A stretch of 64,000 nucleotides of DNA from a virus (taxonomy: Duplodnaviria > Caudoviricetes), in IMG/VR virus record IMGVR_UViG_3300021431_000079, positions 64,001 through 128,000 of that record; one strand, 5' to 3'. The position numbers were made by a program, and so were the translations under genes. The notes under the pieces are model-generated. The model saw only the letters and a list, made by a program, of their open reading frames with translations. It ran no database searches and was not told where the DNA came from. This document shows, in pieces, positions 13,258 through 64,000 of this stretch. Positions within the stretch are counted from its first letter, which is position 1. Every line of letters begins with the position of its first letter.

Positions 13258-13445
13258 TGGGATAGTAACAAGATTACTATCATGTATGATGAAATATGTG
13301 ATTGGGTTGGTGACAGTCACATATGGAGTACGATGTTGGTTAAGCAGTTACCTAAAGCCAACTAAGGTCTTAGACTGAAAGAAAATGCTTGAACAAAAGG
13401 AATTTCCTTTTACCTACAAATTGTTTACAAGGAGTAGGGTTTTAC

Positions 13446-40436: not shown

Positions 40437-40501
40437 AGATGTGTATGTCCATTATTATTTACAAAAGTACATATAAATGTATATAATAATGGACAACCAT
40501 T

Positions 40502-47336: not shown

Positions 47337-48437
47337 ATGAGTAGAAGTTTAGCACATATTGAAGAGATTAAAGCGCTTCATCCAATTGAAGGAAAAGATA
47401 GAATTGTTCTTGCTGAAGTGCTTGGGTGGACAGTTATTGTTCAGAAATCAGAATTTAACATTGGAGACAAAGTAGTATATGTAGAGATTGATTCTGTCCT
47501 TCCTGAGAAACCAGAGTTTGAATTTTTAAGAGATAAGAACTTTAGAATCAAAACTATGAAAATGGCAGGATACTATAGTCAGGGAATTTGTTTTCCGCTT
47601 TCCATTCTCCCAGAAACAAGAGAGTATAATGTTGGTGATGATGTTACAGACATTATTGGCATTAAGCAATATGAGCCGACAATGGATGATGATAAAGAGG
47701 TAATTAAAAACACGCCTCAGAATACAAAACAAAACACAAAGCATTATCCTGAGTTCTTAATGAAGTGGAAGTGGTTCAGAAAGCTTGTACTGCCAAAGAA
47801 ACAGGCAAAAGGATTCCCTGATTTTATTAACAAAAGTGATGAAACGAGGATTGAATCTGCACCTTTTTATCTTCAGAATAAAACTCCAATGATCTGTACA
47901 GAAAAAATTGAGGGACAATCCGGCTCGTTTGCGCTAAAGAAGATTCCTAAGAAACATTTTTGGCAAAAGACACAATATGATTTCATTGTTTGTTCTCGTA
48001 ATCTCAGACTTTGGAATGAAAACAATTCATCATACTGGACAGTTGCGAAGAAGTATCATATTAAAGATGTTCTTATGAAGTTAATTGGCAATAATGATTT
48101 TGTCGCTATTCAGGGCGAATGCGTAGGAACTGGTATTCATAAGAACATTTATCATATTAATGGTTATGATCTTTATGTGTACAATCTCATTTATCCATCT
48201 GGAAGAATGGGAAGTCTTGAAGCTAAGAAAATTATTGAAAAGAATGGAATGAAGTTCGTTCCTATTGTAAATGATAGCTATGTACTTCCTGATACCATTG
48301 AAGAGTTAAGAGAGTACGCACATGGACAAAGCGTATTATATCCAACACTTAGAGAGGGTCTTGTGATTAGATCAAGAGATGGACGTAGAAGTTTTAAGTG
48401 CGTTGATCCTGAATATCTTATCAAGCACAATGCATAA
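47337..48437 (+). CDS. RNA ligase (Rnl2/DRB0094-like)
   Basis: N-terminal OB-like module, SDETRI, motif I EKIEG, IQGEC, REGLV, SFK. Confidence 0.85.
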   Translation: MSRSLAHIEEIKALHPIEGKDRIVLAEVLGWTVIVQKSEFNIGDKVVYVEIDSVLPEKPEFEFLRDKNFRIKTMKMAGYYSQGICFPLSILPETREYNVGDDVTDIIGIKQYEPTMDDDKEVIKNTPQNTKQNTKHYPEFLMKWKWFRKLVLPKKQAKGFPDFINKSDETRIESAPFYLQNKTPMICTEKIEGQSGSFALKKIPKKHFWQKTQYDFIVCSRNLRLWNENNSSYWTVAKKYHIKDVLMKLIGNNDFVAIQGECVGTGIHKNIYHINGYDLYVYNLIYPSGRMGSLEAKKIIEKNGMKFVPIVNDSYVLPDTIEELREYAHGQSVLYPTLREGLVIRSRDGRRSFKCVDPEYLIKHNA

Positions 48438-48452
48438 ATTAAAAAACATCAG

Positions 48453-51400
48453 TTAAAAGGACGCTTTAAAAAAAAAGGACACTTGGGACGCATCCCCTTG
48501 CCAAAGCCGTAGTGCGTGGCTGTAAATAACGGACGGTGGGATGCACGACAACCTGTTGGAAGAAGGCTTGGGTTGTCACTTAAAGGAGATATATGGTGGA
48601 AGCACTCAATAAGCGAGAAATTCATGAACAGCTTGATGAAATCAAAAGTATTGTTGAGATGAATGTTCATCCTGCTGTTTCGCCTGACAACTGGTATATC
48701 TATTCAAATCTGCATGATGAACTTGAGCAACTTGAACTGTTATTAAAACGAAATAACGTAATTTAAATAAAATTGCGGTTTCGCCACAGTATCGTTGATG
48801 GGCGTGTAATAAATAGGTGTGTAGCCTACTTGCAAAGACCTTCCGCATTCTATATTAAAGGGCGATTTGAAGCACAGGAGATAATTTTTAATATGCTGTT
48901 AGCGATATGCTTTTTATGCTTACCCTTTGCATGGACATATATGCTCTATATCTTATGCAAAGAAATAGACGAATTGTAATTTAAAGGGGTAATAAGACTA
49001 TGGCGATCATGAAATGGGAAGAACTTTCTAATGAACAGAAACAGGAATGCTACATGTCCTACTGCGAGGATGTGCGCTATGAGTGGGGAGATAGAGCTAA
49101 ACCGATGTCATACGATGAATGGTGCAAAGAATCAGAGGAACTTGGTGAAGCACTTTATTAAATGAGTTTGGATATGTGGATAGTCCCATTACTTATTGCT
49201 GTTGGATTTGGTGGCATTATTGTGCTTTTTGTGCTTATTGATAAAGATGAATCATAACTTAAAAAGGGAGTTTTGGCATGATGGATGATTGGAAATTATG
49301 GAGGTTATGGTTTATATTTACCATCGTCTGCTGTGTGCTATTAGTTATCCTTGACATTTTAGGTGTGCCAATTGATTAAAACGAGCAAAGCAATGAGAAG
49401 GCGAATTGACGCTACAATTTATTTTGGCGAAAACAGAAAAGAAACAACCGTTTTTGTGGATGAAAATGCCACATATGAAGAGATCTATGATGCAGTCATG
49501 AGCGATGCTTTAGACATGATCGAAATTGAGTGGCACGAAGTTGAAACTGCTTTTTAACGGATGCTTAAAAGGAGGGCTGAGGTGTGATCATTATTTTTGC
49601 AATAATCGTTATAATTCATGCACTTTGGTATACATTTTTGTATGTCGAGTGGCGTAACGACTGTAAAGAGATATGTAAAGAAAATCTTGCCGTACCTTTA
49701 TCAGAGCGGTTGTATAGCTCGTTCTTTTATATTACAATTCCATGTTTTGTTGGAGTGTTAATGGGTTTGTTATGAAAACTTTTCAATTTAAAAGTAACTG
49801 TCTTAATTGCAAATATCATTTAGATAATTGTATTTGTGGAAAAGATGGCACAGATACAAGTGAATGGTTTATGGATGAGGTAACATGTTGTGAGCTATCC
49901 GAATCAGCCAAACAGTACGAATACACAATAAATACAACGCTAAATTAAAGGGAGGCAATATCAATGGAGAAGTATTCATACTATCTGGGCGGGAAACTGT
50001 ATTTTGTCTTGCTGTCACCAGAAGAAAAAGTGCTTTTTGAGAATCGGTATGGTGTGTGCCTGTCAATAGTACGTTAAAAGAGGAAGAGGCAGAGTAATGT
50101 TCACGAAAAAGAAAAATGCAAGATTTGGCAGATATCCATGTTGTGATATGGTCAATAACGCCATAAGGCTCATCGCAAACGGAAAAACAGAACATGCCAT
50201 TGAAGAATTATATATGGCTATACAGAAAGCTGATGGTTATATCCATGAAGACCTTATTGATATAGTCAACGAGGCTCATAAGCAAACATGGAGTGAACGG
50301 CACGGTTTTGATTATTGAGGTACGATTAATGAGCGTGATTATTAAGTGGTCATTTACAAATTAAAAGATCGGAGTATCGTATGGCATATAATATTGGTGA
50401 CACAAGGGTGTTTTATAGCCAGAAATATCGAGACGAAAAGGCAGACAAACTTGAGAAAATGGGATATCGCATTAAACGATATGATGGCCTGACCAATTAT
50501 TTTTTCAAGGTGCTGGACACCCCAAGTCGTTTCTAAAGGACGCTATGGATGAGAAGAAACTAAAAGGTTTGTGTAGAAATTGCATGTATCGTAAAAGATG
50601 TGAAGATGCTAAACGGTATCTCAACATGATTGCATGTTCCAGTTATAGGATACATGGCAATAGGAAGAAACTCACTAAAAGGAGTGTAATCATGAATACT
50701 GTCTATGATTTTGAAACTGCTATCAGCGAACTGATGGACAAGGCATTGAACAAACTTTCTCCGAATGAATTTGAAGTCCTTAAGGACAGAGTTTCTGTGA
50801 TTCTTACGGAGTATGACTAACATTAGAGACGCATATGGGAGCTAACACGAGAAATGAAGGAAACATTTTTAGAGCTGTGTAAACTTTGGTCATTTGTACA
50901 CTTCTGCGAATGGAATGGAACGTACACAAAAGCGATTGACGCATGTAAGAGAATTGATGTTGTCGCAAAAGGACATCCAGTGCTCAATTTTTTAGCGCAA
51001 CATTTTTGCTCATTCTTTTGTTAAAGGATGTTTATAAATGGGAAAAATTATATGTGTATTAACTGTATTTTTAGTGCTTTATTTGATATTAGCCGTTTTT
51101 TATGATGACTGGTTTTTCTTTAAGTAAAGAAGTTCGATCAATGAATGTTAGAAAAGACTGTTTTTATTACGAATATAACATAAGTACCAACACTGATTGT
51201 TGCACATGCAACGAATTAGGAATTTGTCAATGCTCAGATACCTGTGAAGATTATGTGGATAGAGAGGAAATGTCTCAGTCTATTCTTCAGATATTAGAAA
51301 GGGTTTATTAAACGGTGTTTATGAATGATCAAGAAACATAAAATGAGTAATAAGCTTAAATGGTGTTTAGGTTTTAGCAAAGCTGTCGATCTTCGTGGGC

Positions 51401-51990
51401 ATCCAAGATGGAGAACCCGAAAAAAGAATATTCACAGAGTTCAGAAAATGATGCGAAAAGCCTTCAGGCGATGGGGATGCTTTCCTTTACCGCCTGAGTG
51501 GAAACAAAACTCAACTATAAGGAGGGAATGAAAATGGCTTGCCTTTGGTATTTAGGATTAGAAGCAACAGAAGAGTGCATAAAAACGTGTACTATAACAG
51601 AGAAAAATAGGGATATTTGTGTGCGCCCAGAAACTTTAGACGCAGATGACGATTTTGAGTTAATTTAAAGGAGTATAGATGAAAACATGATGCAACTAAT
51701 AGCACATGGCATAGCAAGTGGCAATCTTGTTGCATATATGATACTTTACATAATTCTTTTACCGCCAATAATGCTTATTTGTTTTGCTATTATTGACTGG
51801 ATAAAGAACAAAAATAAATAACTTAAAGGCAGGTATTATGACAGTAAAGGAGTTGATTGAGAAATTACAGCAAGAAAATCCCGATACGCTTGTTTATACA
51901 ACGGACGATACAAATTATGATGATATTGCTTTAGTGACCGAAATTAGTAGAAATATACTTTTTGGAAAGGAGATCATATTTCTTCATTAG
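48453..51990 (+). repeat. Array of about 20 tiny unrelated ORFs and ncRNA-like segments separated by YTAAA(A)GG-type junctions
   Basis: Junctions near 48453, 48579, 48762, 48854, 48980, 49157, 49258, 49375, 49564, 49944, 50073, 50360, 50533, 50674, 51021, 51308, 51664, 51822. Confidence 0.6.
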
Positions 51991-53072
51991 ACGTATATGG
52001 AAGGAGATTGTTTATTTTTATTATGAATTTATTATTTTACAATAATAATGGCGAATGGCATAAACTGTGTGAAACATCTGAGTTTGAAGTAACCAATATA
52101 GAGACAGAAGAGATTACAGAAGGAAAACAGCAAACTCTAATGTTCGATGGCCACTATTCGTGTGATGGAGTGTTCACCCTTACAAAACAATCAAGAATCA
52201 AATTGTTGCAAAAAGTATTTTGTATGTCCAACAACTGGTTGCGTATGCATGGGTATCCGATGAAAAAGAAAAGGGAGTAACTATGATCAACGGATTAAGA
52301 TTAAAAAACGCCTTATTGTGTCAAACAGGAGAGGGTAAAAAATATTGCAAGCATTGTTCGTATAATAACGATGATAAATGTGATATTAAAAAACTCTCGT
52401 CAGATGTGTTGGAGTATATCAAAACGGGTGAAGACACTTTTAATATGCTACAAGATGAATTATTAAAACACATGAAAGCGTCGGAGGGAGACCTTCAAAT
52501 AGAACGAATAAATAAACATAATTCTTTCTTTGTACCAAAAGAGGAAGAGCCAACTTATAAGTGGATAATAGATGGACATCATATTATTTGTGAGCACTGT
52601 GGAATGTGTATGTGTAGGACAGATAGAGAAGGTGACACAATCCCGCATAACTTTTGTCCTGAGTGTGGTGTGAGGATGGAAGAAATAATAGAAGGGTAAT
52701 GAAAGAATGGATGGATATTGTGCAAAGCATAATCGACCATGGACTATTATATGTATTGGATTCAATGAATGGGGCTATGGATGCCCTGAATGTCAAAAGG
52801 AAGGAATGCTTATTCCATCATATAAAGCAGATACAATAACAATAAACACTCAACAAGGATGGGACAATAAAATGGAAAATCAACGAAATGAATTAACGAA
52901 CGACAAAGAAGACAATAAATGCAGGTGTTGTGGCTATCATGGTTTGGAGCAAGGGGATACGTTATATATTTCTGCTGACTGGGATGGTGGAATCGGATTC
53001 GATTACATTCGCAATATAAAATACTGTCCTGTTTGTGGTAAAAAGTTACCCGAAACGTGATGAGGTGTTGTG

Positions 53073-53249
53073 GTGAAGAGATATAGATGTATAGAGTGTA
53101 AACATTGTAATGAAGATGAAAAGAAATGTTATCCTCAGTCGAAAGATTGTCAGGCTGAATATGACTTAACAGAAGATGATATTTATGAGTATTCAACCGA
53201 ACGCTGTGATTTCTTTGAGGCGAAAGTTGAGAAGATGGAGGATGCATGA
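53073..53249 (+). CDS. Small Cys-rich protein, paralog of 63283-63456
   Basis: MKRYRCIECKHCNEDEKKCYPQSKDC...; below the ORF-track length cutoff; 40/57 identities with the minus-strand copy by hand alignment. Confidence 0.75.
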   Translation: MKRYRCIECKHCNEDEKKCYPQSKDCQAEYDLTEDDIYEYSTERCDFFEAKVEKMEDA

Positions 53250-53562
53250 AGAACATCTTGAGTTATCCTGTTGGAACAACGTTCTCTGGGAGTGAAATCA
53301 AAGAATATATCACATACCATTTAACACATGAAACATCTCATACAAAAACGGCAAAACAAATGGAAGAGTATCTATCTGTTAAAGACGAAGAAACCTATGT
53401 ATTTTATAAAGGAAGCTACGAATCCTCCGCTTCTTTCAACAAACCAATGTTTAAAAAGAGGTAATTAAAAATGATTGGAATTATTATTATGACTTTTATT
53501 TTTGGTTTTGTATCAGGAGCATTACTTACAACGTATTATTATGATAAAGGAGAATAAATAAA

Positions 53563-53832
53563 ATGAAAACAATTATAGATAAATATATTTATTATACTGT
53601 AAGGTTTAACTTAAGTAGCTTGAAAGATTTTTGGGAAGTCATTATGAGGTTCTATGCCAACATGGACGCAATACAAGGAAAGTATATCGTTGATGCAAAG
53701 AGTCTTCTTGGAATGCATTCACTGAATTTACTTGAGCCTGTTGTGATTAAGGTGTATGAGGACGATCTTAATAAAGAGGAACAAATAGCACTGGATAAAG
53801 TGCTGTTGCCACTCAGTGTTAATGTTAGATAA
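53563..53832 (+). CDS. HPr-like phosphocarrier-fold protein
   Basis: KYIVDAKSLLGMHSLNL matches the HPr Ser46 region. Confidence 0.7.
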   Translation: MKTIIDKYIYYTVRFNLSSLKDFWEVIMRFYANMDAIQGKYIVDAKSLLGMHSLNLLEPVVIKVYEDDLNKEEQIALDKVLLPLSVNVR

Positions 53833-53911: not shown

Positions 53912-54091
53912 ATGGAAGAAACTGACGAAAGAGATCATATTACAAATGATGAGTTAATACTTTTAAGCGCACTAAATCATATGTGCGAATCTGGAAAAAT
54001 ATCACACAGCCTATTTACTTCTGTCCTTCGTGATTATAAATCAAAAGTTGACATATCTAAGTTCACATGCTATAATCATAATTACAAATGA
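53912..54091 (+). CDS. Small hypothetical protein upstream of the recombinase
   Basis: 59-aa ORF with GGGAGA RBS. Confidence 0.5.
   Translation: MEETDERDHITNDELILLSALNHMCESGKISHSLFTSVLRDYKSKVDISKFTCYNHNYK
54048..54076 (+). promoter_or_regulatory. Consensus sigma-A promoter for the serine recombinase
   Basis: TTGACA-17 bp-TATAAT with TG. Confidence 0.8.
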
Positions 54092-54103
54092 TTATAATTA
54101 TAT

Positions 54104-55939
54104 GTGAGGTTAGTTATGAGAGTAGAAAATAATCAACCAAGAAACATAGCTATATATGCACGAGTATCTACAGAACATGAGGCACAACTATATGCTCTTG
54201 ACAATCAAATAGACTGGTACGAAATCATACTACAGAGTCACCCCAATTGGAATATCATTCATAAATATATTGACAGGGGAATCACTGGAACATCTGCAAC
54301 AAAAAGACCACAATTCATGCAGATGATAAAAGATGCAGAGAGTAAAGAGTTTGATCTTATCATCACTCGTGAGGTTTCGAGGTTCGCAAGAAACACAGTT
54401 GACACATTACAGTACACCAGACAATTGAAAAAGATCGGAATAGAAGTCTATTTCGTTGAGGATAACATCTGGACATTTGATGCAGATGGTGAGTTGAGAC
54501 TAACTATTATGGCAACTCTCGCTCAAGATGAGAGTAGAAAAACATCACTGAGAGTTAAAGCAGGACAAAGGGCAAGTATGGAGAAAGGTGTGTTCTTTCA
54601 GAACGGAAGCATACTTGGATACGATAAAATAGGTAACAACATGGTAATAAACCCAGAACAATCTGCTACTGTCAAATTGATATTTGATCGGTATAATTCA
54701 GGGATGGGTGTTCGTAAAATTCAATGGGAGCTTGAATCACTTGGCAGAAAAACAGCCAAAGGTAGCACAAAGTGGACTGCTTCTGTAATATGCAGAATCT
54801 TGAAGAACAAATTCTATGCAGGATACATTGTGTGGTACAAGCAATTCGTTCCTGATTTTCTTGAACAGAAGAAGATCAATAACCACGGAGAGAAAGAGCA
54901 GTTTGAAGTTCTTGGAAGTCACGAGCCAATAGTATCTCTTGAAGATTGGGAGCTTGCTCAGAGAAGATTGGAGCAATCAAGTCAGATAGTCAACAAGGGT
55001 AGAAAGGTCGGTGCTAAACCTAAGACAGGGTTATGGACAAACAAGCTTAGATGTTCATGTGGTAGATCATTCAACAGAAAGATATGGCACAAGGATAAAA
55101 AAGATGGATCAATCCAATATGGATACCAATGTTACAGCAGTATAAAGTCTGGATCAGTTGCAACAAGAATAAATAAAGGCTTGCCACTTGATGGAATCTG
55201 TAAGAGTCCTGCGATCTCAGAGTGGAAGCTTGAAGCAATGGCACTATATATTTTCAAAGATTTTACCTTCAATAAAGATAGAATCATCCAACTTGGAATG
55301 CGTGAAATAGAAAAAGCATTAAGGTCTGTTAATAATAATGATAACAAAGAACAAATAAATAGTCTAAAAAATGAGCTTGACAAATACAATAAAAAGATAG
55401 ATAATCTAATCGAAATGCGCACAGATGGGGAGATCTCTAAAGAGCAATTCACCGCAAAGAAAAAGGACTTTGAAATCGAGATAAACAGAATAGAGAAAGA
55501 GATAGAATCAATAAGTGATAAGCAGGATGCCATTAAAGATATCCCACAGTTATTGAGTGAGTTCAAAGCAAATTTAACAAGCATGTTGAACGAGCCTATT
55601 GTGGATAAAGTGCCTGAGTATATTATTGATGCTATGGTTGAGTATATCTTGGTGGATGAGAATAAGTTCACTTGGAAGCTACGCTATCCATCTGATAAGT
55701 ATTATTTATCTATTGATGGTAGTAAAAAACAGCATACAGTGTCAGAAAGTCCATCTTTACGTCAATGCCTCACAGGCTGCAATACACGAAATGCGGAACA
55801 AGCAGTAAACAATATCTCATTTACAAACGATTCTATCCTCATCTTATTTGATAAAAAGATGGTACAGCAATATGGCAATCTCAAACCAACAGATAGAATC
55901 CACAGATGGTATGATATTGTGATCGAGATTATTTTTTAA
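54104..55939 (+). CDS. Large serine recombinase (probable integrase)
   Basis: YARVSTE, DRGITGT, SRFARN, recombinase domain, C.CG...C zinc ribbon, coiled coil; true start may be a few codons downstream. Confidence 0.92.
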   Translation: MRLVMRVENNQPRNIAIYARVSTEHEAQLYALDNQIDWYEIILQSHPNWNIIHKYIDRGITGTSATKRPQFMQMIKDAESKEFDLIITREVSRFARNTVDTLQYTRQLKKIGIEVYFVEDNIWTFDADGELRLTIMATLAQDESRKTSLRVKAGQRASMEKGVFFQNGSILGYDKIGNNMVINPEQSATVKLIFDRYNSGMGVRKIQWELESLGRKTAKGSTKWTASVICRILKNKFYAGYIVWYKQFVPDFLEQKKINNHGEKEQFEVLGSHEPIVSLEDWELAQRRLEQSSQIVNKGRKVGAKPKTGLWTNKLRCSCGRSFNRKIWHKDKKDGSIQYGYQCYSSIKSGSVATRINKGLPLDGICKSPAISEWKLEAMALYIFKDFTFNKDRIIQLGMREIEKALRSVNNNDNKEQINSLKNELDKYNKKIDNLIEMRTDGEISKEQFTAKKKDFEIEINRIEKEIESISDKQDAIKDIPQLLSEFKANLTSMLNEPIVDKVPEYIIDAMVEYILVDENKFTWKLRYPSDKYYLSIDGSKKQHTVSESPSLRQCLTGCNTRNAEQAVNNISFTNDSILILFDKKMVQQYGNLKPTDRIHRWYDIVIEIIF

Positions 55940-61656: not shown

Positions 61657-62646
61657 TTATGAGCAATATCTATAATAAGCGTTTTTAACGTTATCCTTTT
61701 CGATGTAAACATATTTCATTGTGGTGTCAATTTTGTCGTGACCCAAAATATAAGCCACATCCTGAATCGACATACCACGCTTAATTAAATTCGTTGCAAG
61801 TGTTCTTCTAAATCTATGCGGATGAACATTCACAACACCAACTTTTTCAGATAACTTTGTCAACATAAATCTAACTCCATGCTGAGTTAGTCTTTCTGAT
61901 CTCTTACCAATTCCAGAGAAGAGAGCTTCGCTATCATCCGTTCTACTTTCAAAATACTGCTTGAGATACATAGCCGTGATATCATCTATGTAAACAGTAC
62001 GCTCCTTATTCCCTTTACCAAGTACACGCACTTCAAGATTCTTGAAATCAACATCGCTTTTATTTAATCTTGTCACTTCACCGATTCTACATCCAGTAGA
62101 AATAAGAAAACAGACAAGCGCCTTATCTCTGATATTAATACAACCTTCTTTTAATTTCTCTATTTCAACACTGTCAAAAGGTAGTCTTTCTAACTTAGCA
62201 TACTTAATCCTACTTAGATTAATGCATGGATCAGTAGGGATAAGATTTTCTCTAAATAACCATCCGAAAAACGAGCACATGACACTTCTATATCCATTCA
62301 ACGTTCTATCAGATATTCCACGACTTTTTAATCCTGCTAAATAGTTTCTAATGTGATATACACTTATATCTCTGGTTGGAACATTGATCTTTTCATACAT
62401 CTTCTCAAGCACATAACGATAATGCCCCAATGTCTTTGAAGAACAACCTTCAATCTGCTTAGAGGAGATAAATGCATCCAATAAGTCTGCGCTATCATCA
62501 TTTTTAATTTCATCAATATTAACAGAACAGACAGAGAGATTATTCGCAACAACTTCCATCACCATAAACAGATCATCATATGACAACTTCGATATAAGAT
62601 CGTTTTTAATATTTTTAATTAAAACCTGCTTATCAGCAATTGACAT
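61657..62646 (-). CDS. Tyrosine recombinase (XerC/D-like, N-terminal SAM-like domain)
   Basis: STGCRIGE, GKGNKER, HPHRFRRT, LGH, catalytic Y in TMKY; GAGG RBS before ATG at 62646. Confidence 0.92.
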   Translation of the reverse strand: MSIADKQVLIKNIKNDLISKLSYDDLFMVMEVVANNLSVCSVNIDEIKNDDSADLLDAFISSKQIEGCSSKTLGHYRYVLEKMYEKINVPTRDISVYHIRNYLAGLKSRGISDRTLNGYRSVMCSFFGWLFRENLIPTDPCINLSRIKYAKLERLPFDSVEIEKLKEGCINIRDKALVCFLISTGCRIGEVTRLNKSDVDFKNLEVRVLGKGNKERTVYIDDITAMYLKQYFESRTDDSEALFSGIGKRSERLTQHGVRFMLTKLSEKVGVVNVHPHRFRRTLATNLIKRGMSIQDVAYILGHDKIDTTMKYVYIEKDNVKNAYYRYCS

Positions 62647-62895: not shown

Positions 62896-62914
62896 TACTT
62901 ACCAAAAGCGTCCT
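62896..62914. repeat. 19-bp direct repeat, copy 1
   Basis: TACTTACCAAAAGCGTCCT, identical at 63825-63843. Confidence 0.9.
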
Positions 62915-62928
62915 ACTAATGTTAGGTA

Positions 62929-63282: not shown

Positions 63283-63456
63283 TTATACACTCATGTTATT
63301 TACTTTCGGTTTATAAAAATCACACCTTTCAGTAGAATAGTCATAGATATCATTATCTGTAAGCGCATATTCACTGAGACAATCCCTCGATTGAGGATAG
63401 CACTTCTTTTCATCTACATTACAATGTTTACATTCTATACACCTATATTTCTGCAT
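63283..63456 (-). CDS. Small Cys-rich protein, paralog of 53073-53249
   Basis: MQKYRCIECKHCNVDEKKCYPQSRDC...; GAGG RBS. Confidence 0.75.
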   Translation of the reverse strand: MQKYRCIECKHCNVDEKKCYPQSRDCLSEYALTDNDIYDYSTERCDFYKPKVNNMSV

Positions 63457-63593: not shown

Positions 63594-63779
63594 ATGGGTA
63601 TCAATGGAGGCCGTAACATCCGGGGAGTTGAAGAGGAGGGTGGATATACCAAATTCAACATCACTCTCCCTCCGTCCCTGATCGAGCGTCTGGATAAGTA
63701 CATGAGGGAAGAAGAACGCAACCGCTCATGGACAATCCAAAAGGCACTCGATGCTTACCTAAGAGAGAAGGGCTATTAA
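63594..63779 (+). CDS. Ribbon-helix-helix (CopG-like) regulator with its own promoter and terminator
   Basis: KFNITLPPSLIERLDKY...RSWTIQKALDAYL; GGAGG RBS; TTGACA at 63543; hairpin spanning the stop. Confidence 0.8.
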   Translation: MGINGGRNIRGVEEEGGYTKFNITLPPSLIERLDKYMREEERNRSWTIQKALDAYLREKGY

Positions 63780-63824: not shown

Positions 63825-63843
63825 TACTTACCAAAAGCGTCCT
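63825..63843. repeat. 19-bp direct repeat, copy 2
   Basis: Minus strand reads CTTAAAGGACGCTTTTGGTAAGTA right after a stop codon. Confidence 0.9.
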
Positions 63844-63848
63844 TTAAG

Positions 63849-64000
63849 TTAGTTGCTCGGCAGTAATGATTTTATCTTACCGCCAATAAGGTTACCAATC
63901 CGTTCCCGTCCTTTTTCGTTCGGATGTGTTCCATCATCAGCCGGATAGAAATAAAGCCTTGTAAACGGGTTAAAACTTGTTTCATGATAAAGGTCAAGAA
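63849..64000 (-). CDS. C-terminal fragment of an SGNH/GDSL hydrolase domain (partial; probably a tail-associated module)
   Basis: LDLYHE...DDGTHPNEKGRERIG (DxxH block V). Confidence 0.65.
   Translation of the reverse strand, partial: LDLYHETSFNPFTRLYFYPADDGTHPNEKGRERIGNLIGGKIKSLLPSN

Follow-up and report, generated by a model that had tools for sequence, protein, structure and literature searches.

The window analyzed here, a stretch of 64,000 nucleotides, lies within the 165-kb genome of a gut or rumen phage that is SPbeta-style, AT-rich, and of Firmicutes type. Between an RNA ligase gene and a conserved 89-codon gene, the window carries a variable block of ~5 kb (48438-53562) containing ~26 tiny ORFs and two small RNAs (Table 1). 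The genome is also rich in RNA-repair genes. The sequence-only reading had described an array of ~20 small units in the first part of this block; 19 ORFs of 27-91 codons and two non-coding units were found in 48438-51990, and the variable block extends further, to 53562. Automatic gene calls missed several of the micro-ORFs, and the junction list was therefore curated by hand. All array ORFs are on the plus strand, and a scan for promoters and terminators found neither inside the array; a perfect sigma-70-type promoter was located at 54048-54076, ahead of a large serine recombinase gene that probably encodes the integrase. Many products of the micro-ORFs in 48893-51990 are small membrane or cysteine-rich proteins, and almost none of them matched PHROGs or Pfam. 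The 57-codon ORF between the two non-coding units gave no match in the family search, and a DNA search of the phage collection returned zero matches.

Table 1. Features of the micro-gene array, its flanks, and the recombinase region (window coordinates)
Feature	Position	Strand	Remarks
RNA ligase gene, conserved left flank	47337..48437	+	Pfam RNA_ligase and PHA02142 OB domain
Strong copy TAAAAGGACGCTTT	48454..48467	+	One mismatch to site A; no stop role, no start after it
nc1, conserved structured small RNA	48471..48590	+	Core ~48486-48580; 10 homologs, covariation
ORF of 57 codons, between nc1 and nc2	48593..48766	+	Ribosome site AAGGAGA
nc2, tentative conserved RNA	48772..48856	+	Three sequences
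Strong copy TTAAAGGGCGATTT	48855..48868	+	Orphan; the next ORF's own ribosome site is 20 nt further
Seventeen micro-ORFs, 27-91 codons	48893..51990	+	All co-oriented
37-codon cassette	49964..50077	+	Upstream of the 73-codon unit here
73-codon cassette, best-travelled unit	50097..50318	+	17 protein clusters at 56-99% identity
Strong copy CTAAAGGACGCTAT	50533..50546	+	Doubles as one ORF's stop and the following ORF's ribosome site
Two units in one frame	50545..50820	+	Second unit 50692-50820 with own SD and ATG
44-codon cassette	51534..51668	+	Directly after the 73-aa homolog in L017
Single-cassette presence/absence	51841..52025	+	50-codon ORF 51838-51990 and the next initiation region
Second part of inserted block, 7 ORFs	52023..53562	+	Joints without TTAAAGG; missing in L008-L011
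58-codon Cys-rich cassette	53073..53249	+	Paralog beside recombinase, 63283-63456 (-)
89-codon gene, conserved right flank	53563..53832	+	Homolog directly 3' of RNA ligase in L008-L011
Large serine recombinase	54116..55939	+	Pfam Resolvase and Recombinase
Xer-like tyrosine recombinase (predicted), all catalytic motifs	61657..62646	-	NCBIfam XerA model
Site B, centre and right arm as site A	62896..62925	-	19-nt direct repeat of site A
Ribbon-helix-helix (RHH; CopG-type) gene between sites A and B	63594..63779	+	Pfam RHH_1
Site A, full strong site, abuts tail-fibre gene stop	63825..63852	-	Exact TTAAAGGACGCTTT at 63847-63834

Homologs of the RNA ligase with 76-98% identity were found in L007-L011; the IMG/VR sequences L002-L006 and a ligase group of 60-66% identity (L012-L015) were set aside as too distant for synteny. 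In L008-L011, where the ligase is 76-82% identical, the block 48438-53562 is wholly missing. In L008 and L009 homology breaks off at the ligase stop codon and picks up again at the ATG of the 89-aa gene, and in L008 a tyrosine integrase occupies the position of the window's serine recombinase. The divergence between L007 and the window is ~3% up to 48470 and then drops to one base in 2.1 kb, which points to a recombination boundary at the junction-element copy at 48454.

One presence/absence difference was resolved to the base. The 50-codon unit is present in the window and in L051 and is missing from L039, L052, and L053, which are 99-100% identical to the window over the 3.4 kb upstream of the missing unit. 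Both breakpoints are at ATGs, in an 8-nt repeat (shared TATTATG); the break is 16 nt 3' of the TAAA, and no TTAAAGG is found at the right end. The sequence-only reading had asked whether relatives gain, lose, or reorder units exactly at the TAAA; gain, loss, and reordering were all observed, but the one base-resolved indel falls at start codons instead. What looked like a replacement allele of this cassette in L052 was rejected, as it is a scaffold gap of N between duplicated sequence and the cassette is simply missing. Elsewhere, divergence between strains shifts abruptly at the scale of units, as in a mosaic. The 44-codon cassette, for example, is a divergent patch: of the few differences that separate L039 from the window, 10 lie in it. 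L017 and L018 share ~90% nucleotide identity over one cassette, ending inside a joint, and a 660-bp stretch of 96.7% identity between L025 and L026 both begins and ends at joints. In four comparisons (L017/L018, L025/L026, L007/window, and L039/L052/L053 versus the window) the breakpoints lie in joints or no more than ~16 nt from them.

Single units also recur, reordered, in unrelated phage contigs (L017, L018, L024, and L025). The 73-codon cassette was found in at least five unrelated contexts, and its nucleotide differences number 30 at third codon positions versus 12 and 9 at the other two. In L018, a homolog of the 37-codon cassette (50% amino acid identity) is located downstream of the 73-aa homolog, so the order is reversed relative to the window. 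The ORF 50545-50820 had been read as two units fused by an out-of-frame junction, which agrees with L024 and L025, where a stand-alone 43-aa gene upstream of the 73-aa gene matches the last 42 codons of this ORF. The 58-codon cassette and its paralog beside the recombinase are 70% identical in amino acids and ~80% in nucleotides, from the ribosome site to about codon 50, and their flanks are unrelated. Thus, the absence of the whole block, the reordering, the paralog, the single-unit indel, and the mosaic boundaries support the view that the array units behave as independently exchangeable cassettes.

Two of the units had been described as structured and non-coding, a description that fits nc1 well and nc2 tentatively. 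Among the 10 sequences of nc1, 14 of the 29 predicted pairs are compensatory and almost none is broken; this covariation confirms the structure of nc1, a new covarying RNA family. A model (R1) finds one nc1 copy per genome; in L029-L031 it is located between tRNA genes, and in L032, L033, L041, L045, and L046 it is bounded by direct copies of the local junction element. The second unit, nc2, is ~77% identical to L025 1558-1642, with a third and more diverged copy at L026 38-112. These three sequences preserve its closing stem, with a single compensatory change, and pattern scans of IMG/VR gave no further copy; we tentatively regard nc2 as a conserved structured RNA. Rfam contains no family for nc1 (E up to 5) or for nc2, and the single-sequence folding energy of neither unit is better than that of shuffled sequences (z of -0.4 and +1.4).

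We then consider what joins these units. The ten junction strings listed in the sequence-only reading are all present where it had placed them. The pattern YTAAA(A)GG was set post hoc by that reader, but the margin of the enrichment is large: YTAAA{1,3}GG within 30 nt upstream of a start was found at 9 of the 19 junctions in 48438-51990, versus 4 of the 229 junctions elsewhere in the 165-kb genome (Fisher P = 7e-9). It was seen at none of the 7 junctions of 52000-53563 and at 1 of 101 other genes shorter than 100 aa. Genes elsewhere in the window had been said often to overlap instead, which is only partly true (51 of 235 junctions outside the array). The commonest 7-mer of the array is TTAAAGG, and the sequence shared by the joints of the window is only 7-9 nt long. 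A T-rich right arm is present in only 6 of the 17 array joints, the centres of which all differ, and most array joints consist only of the left half of a dyad element (e.g., TTAAAGGAG). Joints can be highly uniform in the arrays of other phages, TAAATAGGAGTTT occurring seven times in 1.2 kb of L018 and AAAGCAGAC at least five times in 1.3 kb of L026.

The explanation that we favor, with confidence no better than even, is a hyperplastic region of the PeSL kind that is shuffled by short-homology recombination at its junction elements. PeSL stands for promoter-early stem-loop; such cassettes populate the hyperplastic regions of T4-type phages (Arbiol et al. 2010, PMC2839356; Comeau et al. 2014, PMC4122927), where PeSL-mediated shuffling and mini-circles have been documented (PMC2839356). 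Under this explanation, the tiny accessory genes would form, together with two small RNAs, a promoterless and co-oriented chain that is read through from upstream. Each joint would consist of TTAAA as the left arm, then 5-7 nt of G-rich centre, and in many cases a right arm rich in T, overlapping in the window phage with a stop codon and a ribosome-binding site. Since a like element is found at every joint, in a lineage-specific version, short-homology or microhomology recombination between joints could move the units, so that single units would be inserted, deleted, replaced, and reordered. Such exchange may take place within one genome or between co-infecting relatives, possibly via small circles. 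Motif enrichment, cassette turnover, and breakpoints at joints are observed, and we infer that joint homology, without a dedicated enzyme, is behind most events.

The resemblance to PeSL regions is extensive. Both have dense runs of small ORFans joined by a repeated, lineage-specific intergenic motif, which is concentrated in the small-gene region and also has an expression function. In both, close relatives differ by insertions, deletions, and replacements located at the motif, although the best-resolved event here is at an ATG. The differences are in the joint and its contents. Whereas PeSLs contain a sigma-70 promoter and a stem-loop terminator, neither was found at the joints here, which are 9-17 nt long, of the stop, A/U-rich, and ribosome-site type, with dyad arms. 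Such a translation-initiation-type linker, lacking promoter and terminator, would act like the "mobile regulatory cassettes" of PeSL regions. Small RNAs are among the cassettes here, and the host and phage group are unrelated. Three points speak against the short-homology explanation: a joint of 7-9 nt is short for homologous recombination, constant arms around a genome-uniform centre are the pattern expected of sites read by a protein, and strong copies of the element adjoin Xer-like recombinase genes.

The last two points concern a family of stronger sites. The best copy of the motif had been reported beside the tyrosine recombinase, and it is indeed there, as site A. Six matches to TTAAAGGACGCTTT with no more than two mismatches are present in the window versus 0.51 expected, and none of 100 shuffles reaches six, so the site family is non-random. 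The copy at 48454 marks the left edge of the array, site B is ~240 nt upstream of the Xer-like recombinase gene, and an in-frame related copy is located inside the fibre gene at window position 65435 (minus strand). Four copies (48459+, 50538+, 63842-, and 62913-) have the centre GGACGC in common with swapped left or right arms. Across lineages the arms TTAAA/TTTAA are kept and the 6-nt centre changes, while within one genome the centre is uniform. In L008, the three equivalent positions, one behind the ligase and one on either side of an RHH gene, have a GGACAC version, which suggests that the centre covaries between genomes. The RHH gene of L020 is likewise bounded by GGACAC-type copies. The arms reach ~8-11 nt in L037 and L045, but they are short overall and the right arm is missing from many copies. 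In the window, L008, and L045, strong copies adjoin Xer-like recombinase genes; L045, a distant phage, repeats the layout of the window with fibre gene, site, cassette (nc1), site, terminator, and Xer-like gene in this order, and has three GGGAAC centres.

The recombinase beside these sites is predicted to belong to the Xer family with an intact active site. It scores 219.6 bits against the NCBIfam XerA model (cut-off 220), among relatives of solved structure its best match is XerA (4a8e), to which R, K, HxxR, H, and Y align, and its motifs include R (GCRIGE), K (GKGNKER), HxxR, LGH, and Y. By comparison, the integron-integrase model TIGR02249 gives 56 bits (cut-off 265) and PRK15417 gives 36.6 (cut-off 435). 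Judged by these scores, the enzyme is XerA/XerC-like and no integron integrase.

A site-specific cassette platform of Xer type, working like an integron or like dif modules, is a possible though doubtful alternative. The AT-rich inverted arms of ~8-11 bp and the 6-bp centre might form the core site of the recombinase, a view to which we give similarly limited credence; blocks between identical centres (GGACGC) might, with equal reserve, be cut out in circular form and integrated at other copies; and the weak TTAAAGG joints could conceivably be decayed or co-opted half-sites. In its broadest form, which we hold just as doubtful, a dedicated exchange system of large SPbeta-style gut and rumen phages would use the Xer-like enzyme on TTAAA-N6-TTTAA to move micro-genes and RNAs between a platform at the fibre gene and remote arrays. 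Besides the excess of sites and the catalytic residues, this alternative has in its favor the four GGACGC copies, which resemble hybrid products, the centre shift in L008, the repeated layout in L045, the direct element copies around nc1 in the five phages named above, and the L007 boundary, which lies on the 48454 copy. On the other side, the arms are degenerate, and most array joints, as left half-elements with unlike centres, are poor candidates for partner sites of a tyrosine recombinase. The base-resolved indel is outside the element, the strong sites show no rearrangement among five near-identical strains, and L008 has an orthologous recombinase and sites yet no array. No tyrosine recombinase was found in L018, L033, and L034, although these contigs are each only ~40% complete and the absence there is weak evidence. 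The array itself is 10-13 kb from the recombinase and on the opposite strand; between sites A and B are only 2-3 units, oriented as the recombinase gene. The sequence-only reading took the joints for crossover scars of this enzyme. The exchangeable cassettes, a junction element beyond stop and SD, and the strong element shared with the recombinase region are retained from that proposal; the rest of it, including junctions made by the recombinase, is not upheld by the Xer-like enzyme, the lack of attC-like repeats, the distance, the strand, L008, the indel at start codons, and the half-element joints.

As in integrons, promoterless single-gene cassettes point in one direction, are singly mobile, have a recurring boundary sequence, and recur elsewhere carrying the 3' boundary element, and a tyrosine recombinase gene lies beside strong copies of the site. 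Unlike in integrons, the enzyme is Xer-like and not IntI, there are no 57-141-bp attC hairpins or GTTRRRY cores at the 9-17-nt joints, and the array has no attI or Pc arrangement. In integrons, attC sites are imperfect inverted repeats with R''/L''-L'/R' boxes that end each cassette on its 3' side, and the array starts at attI and Pc, which adjoin the integrase gene and diverge from it. A search of the joints for attC-like local inverted repeats found none, with only distant weak pairs. The units are several-fold smaller than typical cassettes, and one resolved indel is outside the element. The array is a gene-shuffling hotspot and not an integron in the strict sense. The dif modules of Acinetobacter plasmids (pdif, XerC/XerD; PMC6449649, PMC13141974) are likewise small accessory units shuffled between replicons, and they too are delimited by short Xer-type sites in which AT-rich arms surround a 6-bp centre. 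However, they use host XerCD and 28-bp sites in alternating orientation, whereas the sites here are direct repeats, shorter and more degenerate, with a putative phage-encoded Xer-like enzyme. The Rin shufflon of Bifidobacterium prophages, in which a tyrosine invertase acts on 11-bp rix repeats at segments of a receptor-binding-protein gene (PMC6109161), is similar in that a phage tyrosine recombinase neighbors a tail-fibre gene and short repeats occur at this gene or within it. Rin inverts alternative C-terminal segments between inverted sites, whereas the fibre-gene sites here are direct repeats and the array consists of unrelated micro-genes far from the fibre gene.

It is unlikely that the joints are translation punctuation only, i.e., a stop codon, an A/U-rich enhancer, and an SD sequence in an AT-rich Firmicutes phage, with no recombination role and with mosaicism being ordinary gene-boundary mosaicism filtered by selection. 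AAAGGAGG base-pairs with the 3' end of 16S rRNA, and in the rest of the genome 152 of the 233 upstream genes end in TAA. Within the array, TAA serves as the upstream stop in 9 of the 17 TTAAA/CTAAA copies, which bears out in part the claim that it often does so; the other eight follow a separate stop or non-coding DNA. Punctuation would also fit the location of the resolved indel at start codons and the presence of another small-gene block in the same genome with its own junction dialect, GAAAGGAGA. The motif is, however, ~25-fold rarer at the other 229 junctions, 61 of which have gaps of 5-25 nt, and the copies at 48453 and 48855 have no start of their own. A stop plus an SD sequence, offered earlier as a caveat, thus fails as the full cause of a motif of which about half of the copies are not stops and two precede no gene. 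Furthermore, other phages have sister arrays (L025/L026, L041, and L032/L033) in which the homologous element flanks an RNA or is found ahead of a separate ribosome site, and the uniformity of the joints of a single array goes far beyond what function requires. These observations support a junction element that is more than a stop and an SD sequence.

It is very unlikely that the strong sites are primarily regulatory, as operators for the RHH protein or for a repressor with a recombinase fold, or as promoters of a phage RNA polymerase, recombination being incidental. In Bacillus phage SPbeta, also a large temperate-style phage with a serine integrase and a protein of tyrosine-recombinase fold, this protein (MrpR) binds a short ~15-bp element, SPBRE, repeated in ~10 intergenic regions (PMC10516654). 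Sites flank RHH genes in three phages here, and the genome encodes a two-barrel RNA-polymerase-like protein. MrpR has lost the catalytic residues, which the protein here retains, and no MrpR structure is among the sequence matches of the recombinase; SPBRE is situated in promoter regions and has not been reported to bound cassettes, whereas several copies here coincide with gene ends or fall within a gene. In neither G006 nor G007 does the generic element show genome-wide enrichment. The junction element leaves 0-2 nt between its end and GGGAC, the invariant start of nc1, and has an outline that we take to be like that of T7/SP6-type promoters, but this idea is a minor rival, as no T7-type polymerase was found in three complete genomes (PF00940 search of G000, G006, and G007, run without a positive control).

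The small early genes of large phages are a source of anti-defence and host-takeover functions, and their trade is poorly understood outside T4-type phages. With PeSL-like shuffling by short homology as the favored explanation, this locus shows, at base resolution and among co-circulating strains, the exchange of individual micro-genes and small RNAs at short junction elements that several uncultured phage lineages have in common. The new covarying RNA family of nc1 travels as a cassette and is found among tRNA genes in other phages. Should the Xer-like enzyme indeed read these strong sites, the locus would represent the first cassette platform of its kind carried by a phage and could supply compact, orthogonal recombination sites. 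A dedicated exchange system, if true, would amount to a viral counterpart, in function, of integrons and dif modules.

The RNA ligase of the window is 76-82% identical to those of four sister phages (L008-L011), in which the ligase is followed by a terminator hairpin and then by the counterpart of the 89-codon gene that starts at 53563. Homology to these phages at the DNA level ends at the ligase stop codon and restarts at the ATG of the 89-codon gene, and the gap thus defines a variable block of ~5.1 kb, which, judging by these alignments, is an insertion relative to the sister phages. The sequence-only reading had placed an integron-like array of micro-cassettes at 48453-51990; variability there was borne out, but the block is longer than proposed. 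Manual curation of the genes in 48438-51990 delimited two non-coding units and 19 ORFs, all on the plus strand and 27-91 codons long, and the junction strings of the earlier reading were each found at the listed coordinate. A hairpin 8 kb upstream of the block matches the terminator-like hairpin 3' of the L008 ligase, and is thus a repeated intergenic hairpin.

Coordinates of features in the window, the full genome and compared phage contigs
Feature	Position	Strand	Remark
Variable block	48438-53562		
nc1, non-coding unit 1	48471-48590	+	directly 3' of RNA ligase
ORF with homolog in L018	49964-50077		
73-codon ORF	50097-50318		
Fused ORF	50545-50820		
44-codon ORF	51534-51668		
Strain indel	51841-52025		50-codon ORF and next initiation region
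Duplicated ORF	53073-53249		
Its paralog	63283-63456		opposite strand
Strong-site copies	48454, 48855, 50533	+	
Strong-site copy	63847	-	abuts tail-fibre stop
Strong-site copy	62914	-	19-nt repeat of 63847 copy, upstream of recombinase gene
Related palindromic copy	65435	-	in frame within fibre gene
Repeat-flanked segment	62896-63852	-	between tail-fibre stop and Xer-like gene
Hairpin	40446-40495	+	82% identical to L008 11100-11148
Drum RNA	13284-13393	+	RF02958, 78.5 bits
Promoter	54048-54076	+	TTGACA-17-TATAAT, extended -10 TG
Second small-gene block	-28127 to -17810	+	genome ~36-46 kb
587-aa ORF	genome 25877-27640	-	
RHH segment	L020 4071-4450		
Non-coding stretch	L017 4880-5190		~300 nt
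Site and Xer-like gene layout	L045 8630-10053		

A strain set of contigs, chosen for an identical ligase or for near-identical array DNA, was aligned to the window. L051 is identical to the window, and three other strains (L039, L052 and L053) are 99-100% identical across the initial 3.4 kb of array DNA and lack exactly the segment listed as the strain indel. Its breakpoints are the two start codons, within a common TATTATG; the left one is 16 nt 3' of TTAAAGG, and the right end has no TTAAAGG. A seeming replacement at this place in L052 is a scaffold gap. Divergence between strains is patchy and at the scale of cassettes: the 44-codon ORF holds 10 of the few differences of L039, and the ligase relative L007 is ~3% divergent up to 48470 and then differs by 1 base in the next 2.1 kb. 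The indel and the patchy divergence thus indicate that units are gained and lost at joints, as the earlier reading had proposed, but the sole event resolved to the base has its breakpoints outside the TAAA at which crossover had been placed.

The joints of sister arrays are lineage-specific and much sharper than those of the window array. TAAATAGGAGTTT occurs in 7 copies within 1.2 kb of the array contig L018 and in 4 copies in another, L017, and (ACTGA)ATTAAAGCAGAC is found at almost all joints of the contigs L025 and L026, in which a separate ribosome site follows the element. L017 (G+C 46%) and L018 (34%) have different flanking genes but have one cassette in common at ~90% nucleotide identity, which stops within the joint. 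Likewise, L025 and L026 are 96.7% identical across 660 bp, each end of which is at a joint, the right one after ACTGAA, within the element. The non-coding stretch of L017 has tRNA-like ends (5' GGTGGCGGAAT and a T-arm-like 3' GGTGCAAATCC) and is possibly a tRNA gene interrupted by a large insertion.

Units also move singly. The 73-codon ORF has 17 homolog clusters, with substitutions concentrated at third codon positions that mark it as a real gene, in at least five unrelated genomic settings, including 3' of a transglutaminase-like gene close to a holin, adjoining HTH and integrase genes, 3' of a diversity-generating reverse transcriptase, and within other micro-gene arrays. Its neighbors vary: a homolog of the 44-codon ORF is immediately 3' of it in L017, and a homolog of 49964-50077, upstream in the window, is one gene downstream in L018. 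In L024 and L025 it lies downstream of a 43-aa gene that stands alone and is homologous to the last 42 codons of the fused ORF, confirming that two units are joined there. The duplicated ORF and its paralog share ~80% identity between the ribosome site and about codon 50, and their flanks are unrelated. In phage contig L020, a 12-nt direct repeat, GGACACTTTAAT, is on both sides of a 367-bp segment with an oppositely oriented RHH gene, directly 3' of the 73-aa cassette and within the tail and lysis region of the phage.

Two non-coding structured units had been proposed, and the first, nc1, is upheld by compensatory changes in 14 of 29 pairs among at least 10 homologs. The RNA is ~95 nt long, with two covarying stems; its 5' GGGAC is invariant and a hairpin loop in it is conserved. 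It is present once per genome in further contigs (L025, L027-L034 and L036-L047) and is located between tRNA genes in L029-L031. No Rfam family was found for nc1, a candidate new phage small-RNA family. Independent contigs carry direct copies of the local element version on both sides of nc1, with arms TTAAA and TTTAA and centers TGACAC, TGGCAC, GGGAAC or GGACAC.

For the process behind the turnover, we put homology-driven exchange like that of PeSL regions at about even chances. In its favor, the breakpoint of the resolved indel lies in microhomology, most joints of the window array are degenerate half-sites, some arrays are in contigs where the search found no recombinase, and one sister phage has the recombinase yet no array.

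The window is bases 64001-128000 of a complete virus record, which is 165,006 bp long (G+C ~35%) and encodes a PolIII-alpha-type polymerase, NrdD, a tRNA cluster, RNA ligase, endolysin, one large serine recombinase and one tyrosine recombinase; in overall composition it is like the SPbeta-style large phages of Firmicutes. A two-barrel RNA-polymerase-like ORF of 587 aa is present upstream of the window. It matches Enterocloster and Thomasclavelia phage proteins that carry the annotation "RNA-dependent RNA polymerase", with identity of up to 44%, reached against a gut phage contig that lacks annotation, and it probably belongs to a two-barrel phage RNA polymerase. The tRNA cluster (11 genes at 9.5-14.2 kb of the window) contains a drum RNA. 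A perfect promoter is directly upstream of the large serine recombinase, the position of which is occupied by a tyrosine integrase in L008.

The tyrosine recombinase of the window resembles XerA/XerC, and its catalytic motifs are intact. It falls far under the integron-integrase cut-off, attC-like hairpins sought in the array joints were not found, and the array fails the tests that define integrons. The motif copy noted beside the recombinase (63848-63834, minus strand) does belong to a family: TTAAAGGACGCTTT with at most 2 mismatches has 6 matches in the window against 0.51 expected, a number reached in 0 of 100 shuffles. Four strong-site copies have the center GGACGC in common, with arms exchanged among them, whereas L008 has GGACAC at the matching three places, after the ligase and on each side of the RHH gene, and the center thus covaries between genomes. 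In the distant phage L045, a fibre-like gene stop is followed by site, site, nc1, site, terminator and an Xer-like gene (30% identical to the window recombinase), all three sites being centered on GGGAAC; this layout matches the minus strand between 65.7 and 61.6 kb in window coordinates. The repeat-flanked segment of the window comprises ~930 bp with the RHH gene and two micro-ORFs between two 19-nt direct repeats, and the Xer-like gene has the opposite orientation in L008. A site-specific, Xer-type process at the strong copies is a possible but doubtful alternative to homology-driven exchange. It would fit the dyad architecture of these sites, their centers (the same within a genome, different across genomes), the arm-swapped copies, the recurring recombinase-adjacent layout and the L007 divergence boundary at 48454. 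On the recombinase side, the arrangement is reminiscent of dif modules (PMC6449649) and of the Rin shufflon (PMC6109161).

The earlier reading cautioned that a stop codon plus a Shine-Dalgarno sequence can imitate the junction motif. YTAAA{1,3}GG precedes 9 of the 19 starts in 48438-51990 by no more than 30 nt, versus 4 of 229 starts elsewhere in the genome (P = 7×10−9, Fisher's exact test), 0 of 7 starts in 52000-53563, and 1 of 101 starts of other genes under 100 aa. The motif is thus enriched per junction, and not as a by-product of gene density. The TAA, read earlier as often the upstream stop, has this role in 9 of 17 TTAAA/CTAAA-G copies, but the other 8 come after a separate stop or non-coding DNA, and no start follows the copies at 48453 and 48855. 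Of the 61 junctions with gaps of 5-25 nt in the rest of the genome, most of which come after TAA, just 5 contain TAAA..GG. Stop plus Shine-Dalgarno accounts for the motif in part, not wholly, and punctuation as its entire explanation is improbable. The second small-gene block has its own junction dialect, (TAAgc)GAAAGGAGA, with 10 of the 13 plus-strand genome copies of GAAAGGAGA inside it. A promoter and terminator scan found no sigma-70-type promoter and no terminator inside the array. That the strong sites are operators or promoters has a precedent in MrpR/SPBRE of SPbeta (PMC10516654) and suits RHH genes with sites on both sides, but we regard it as improbable as well.

Cassette turnover at the joints is a demonstrated property of this array. 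Among known systems, the PeSL-rich hyperplastic regions of T4-type phages (PMC2839356) are closest to it in working, although the linker of the window array is of a different kind.
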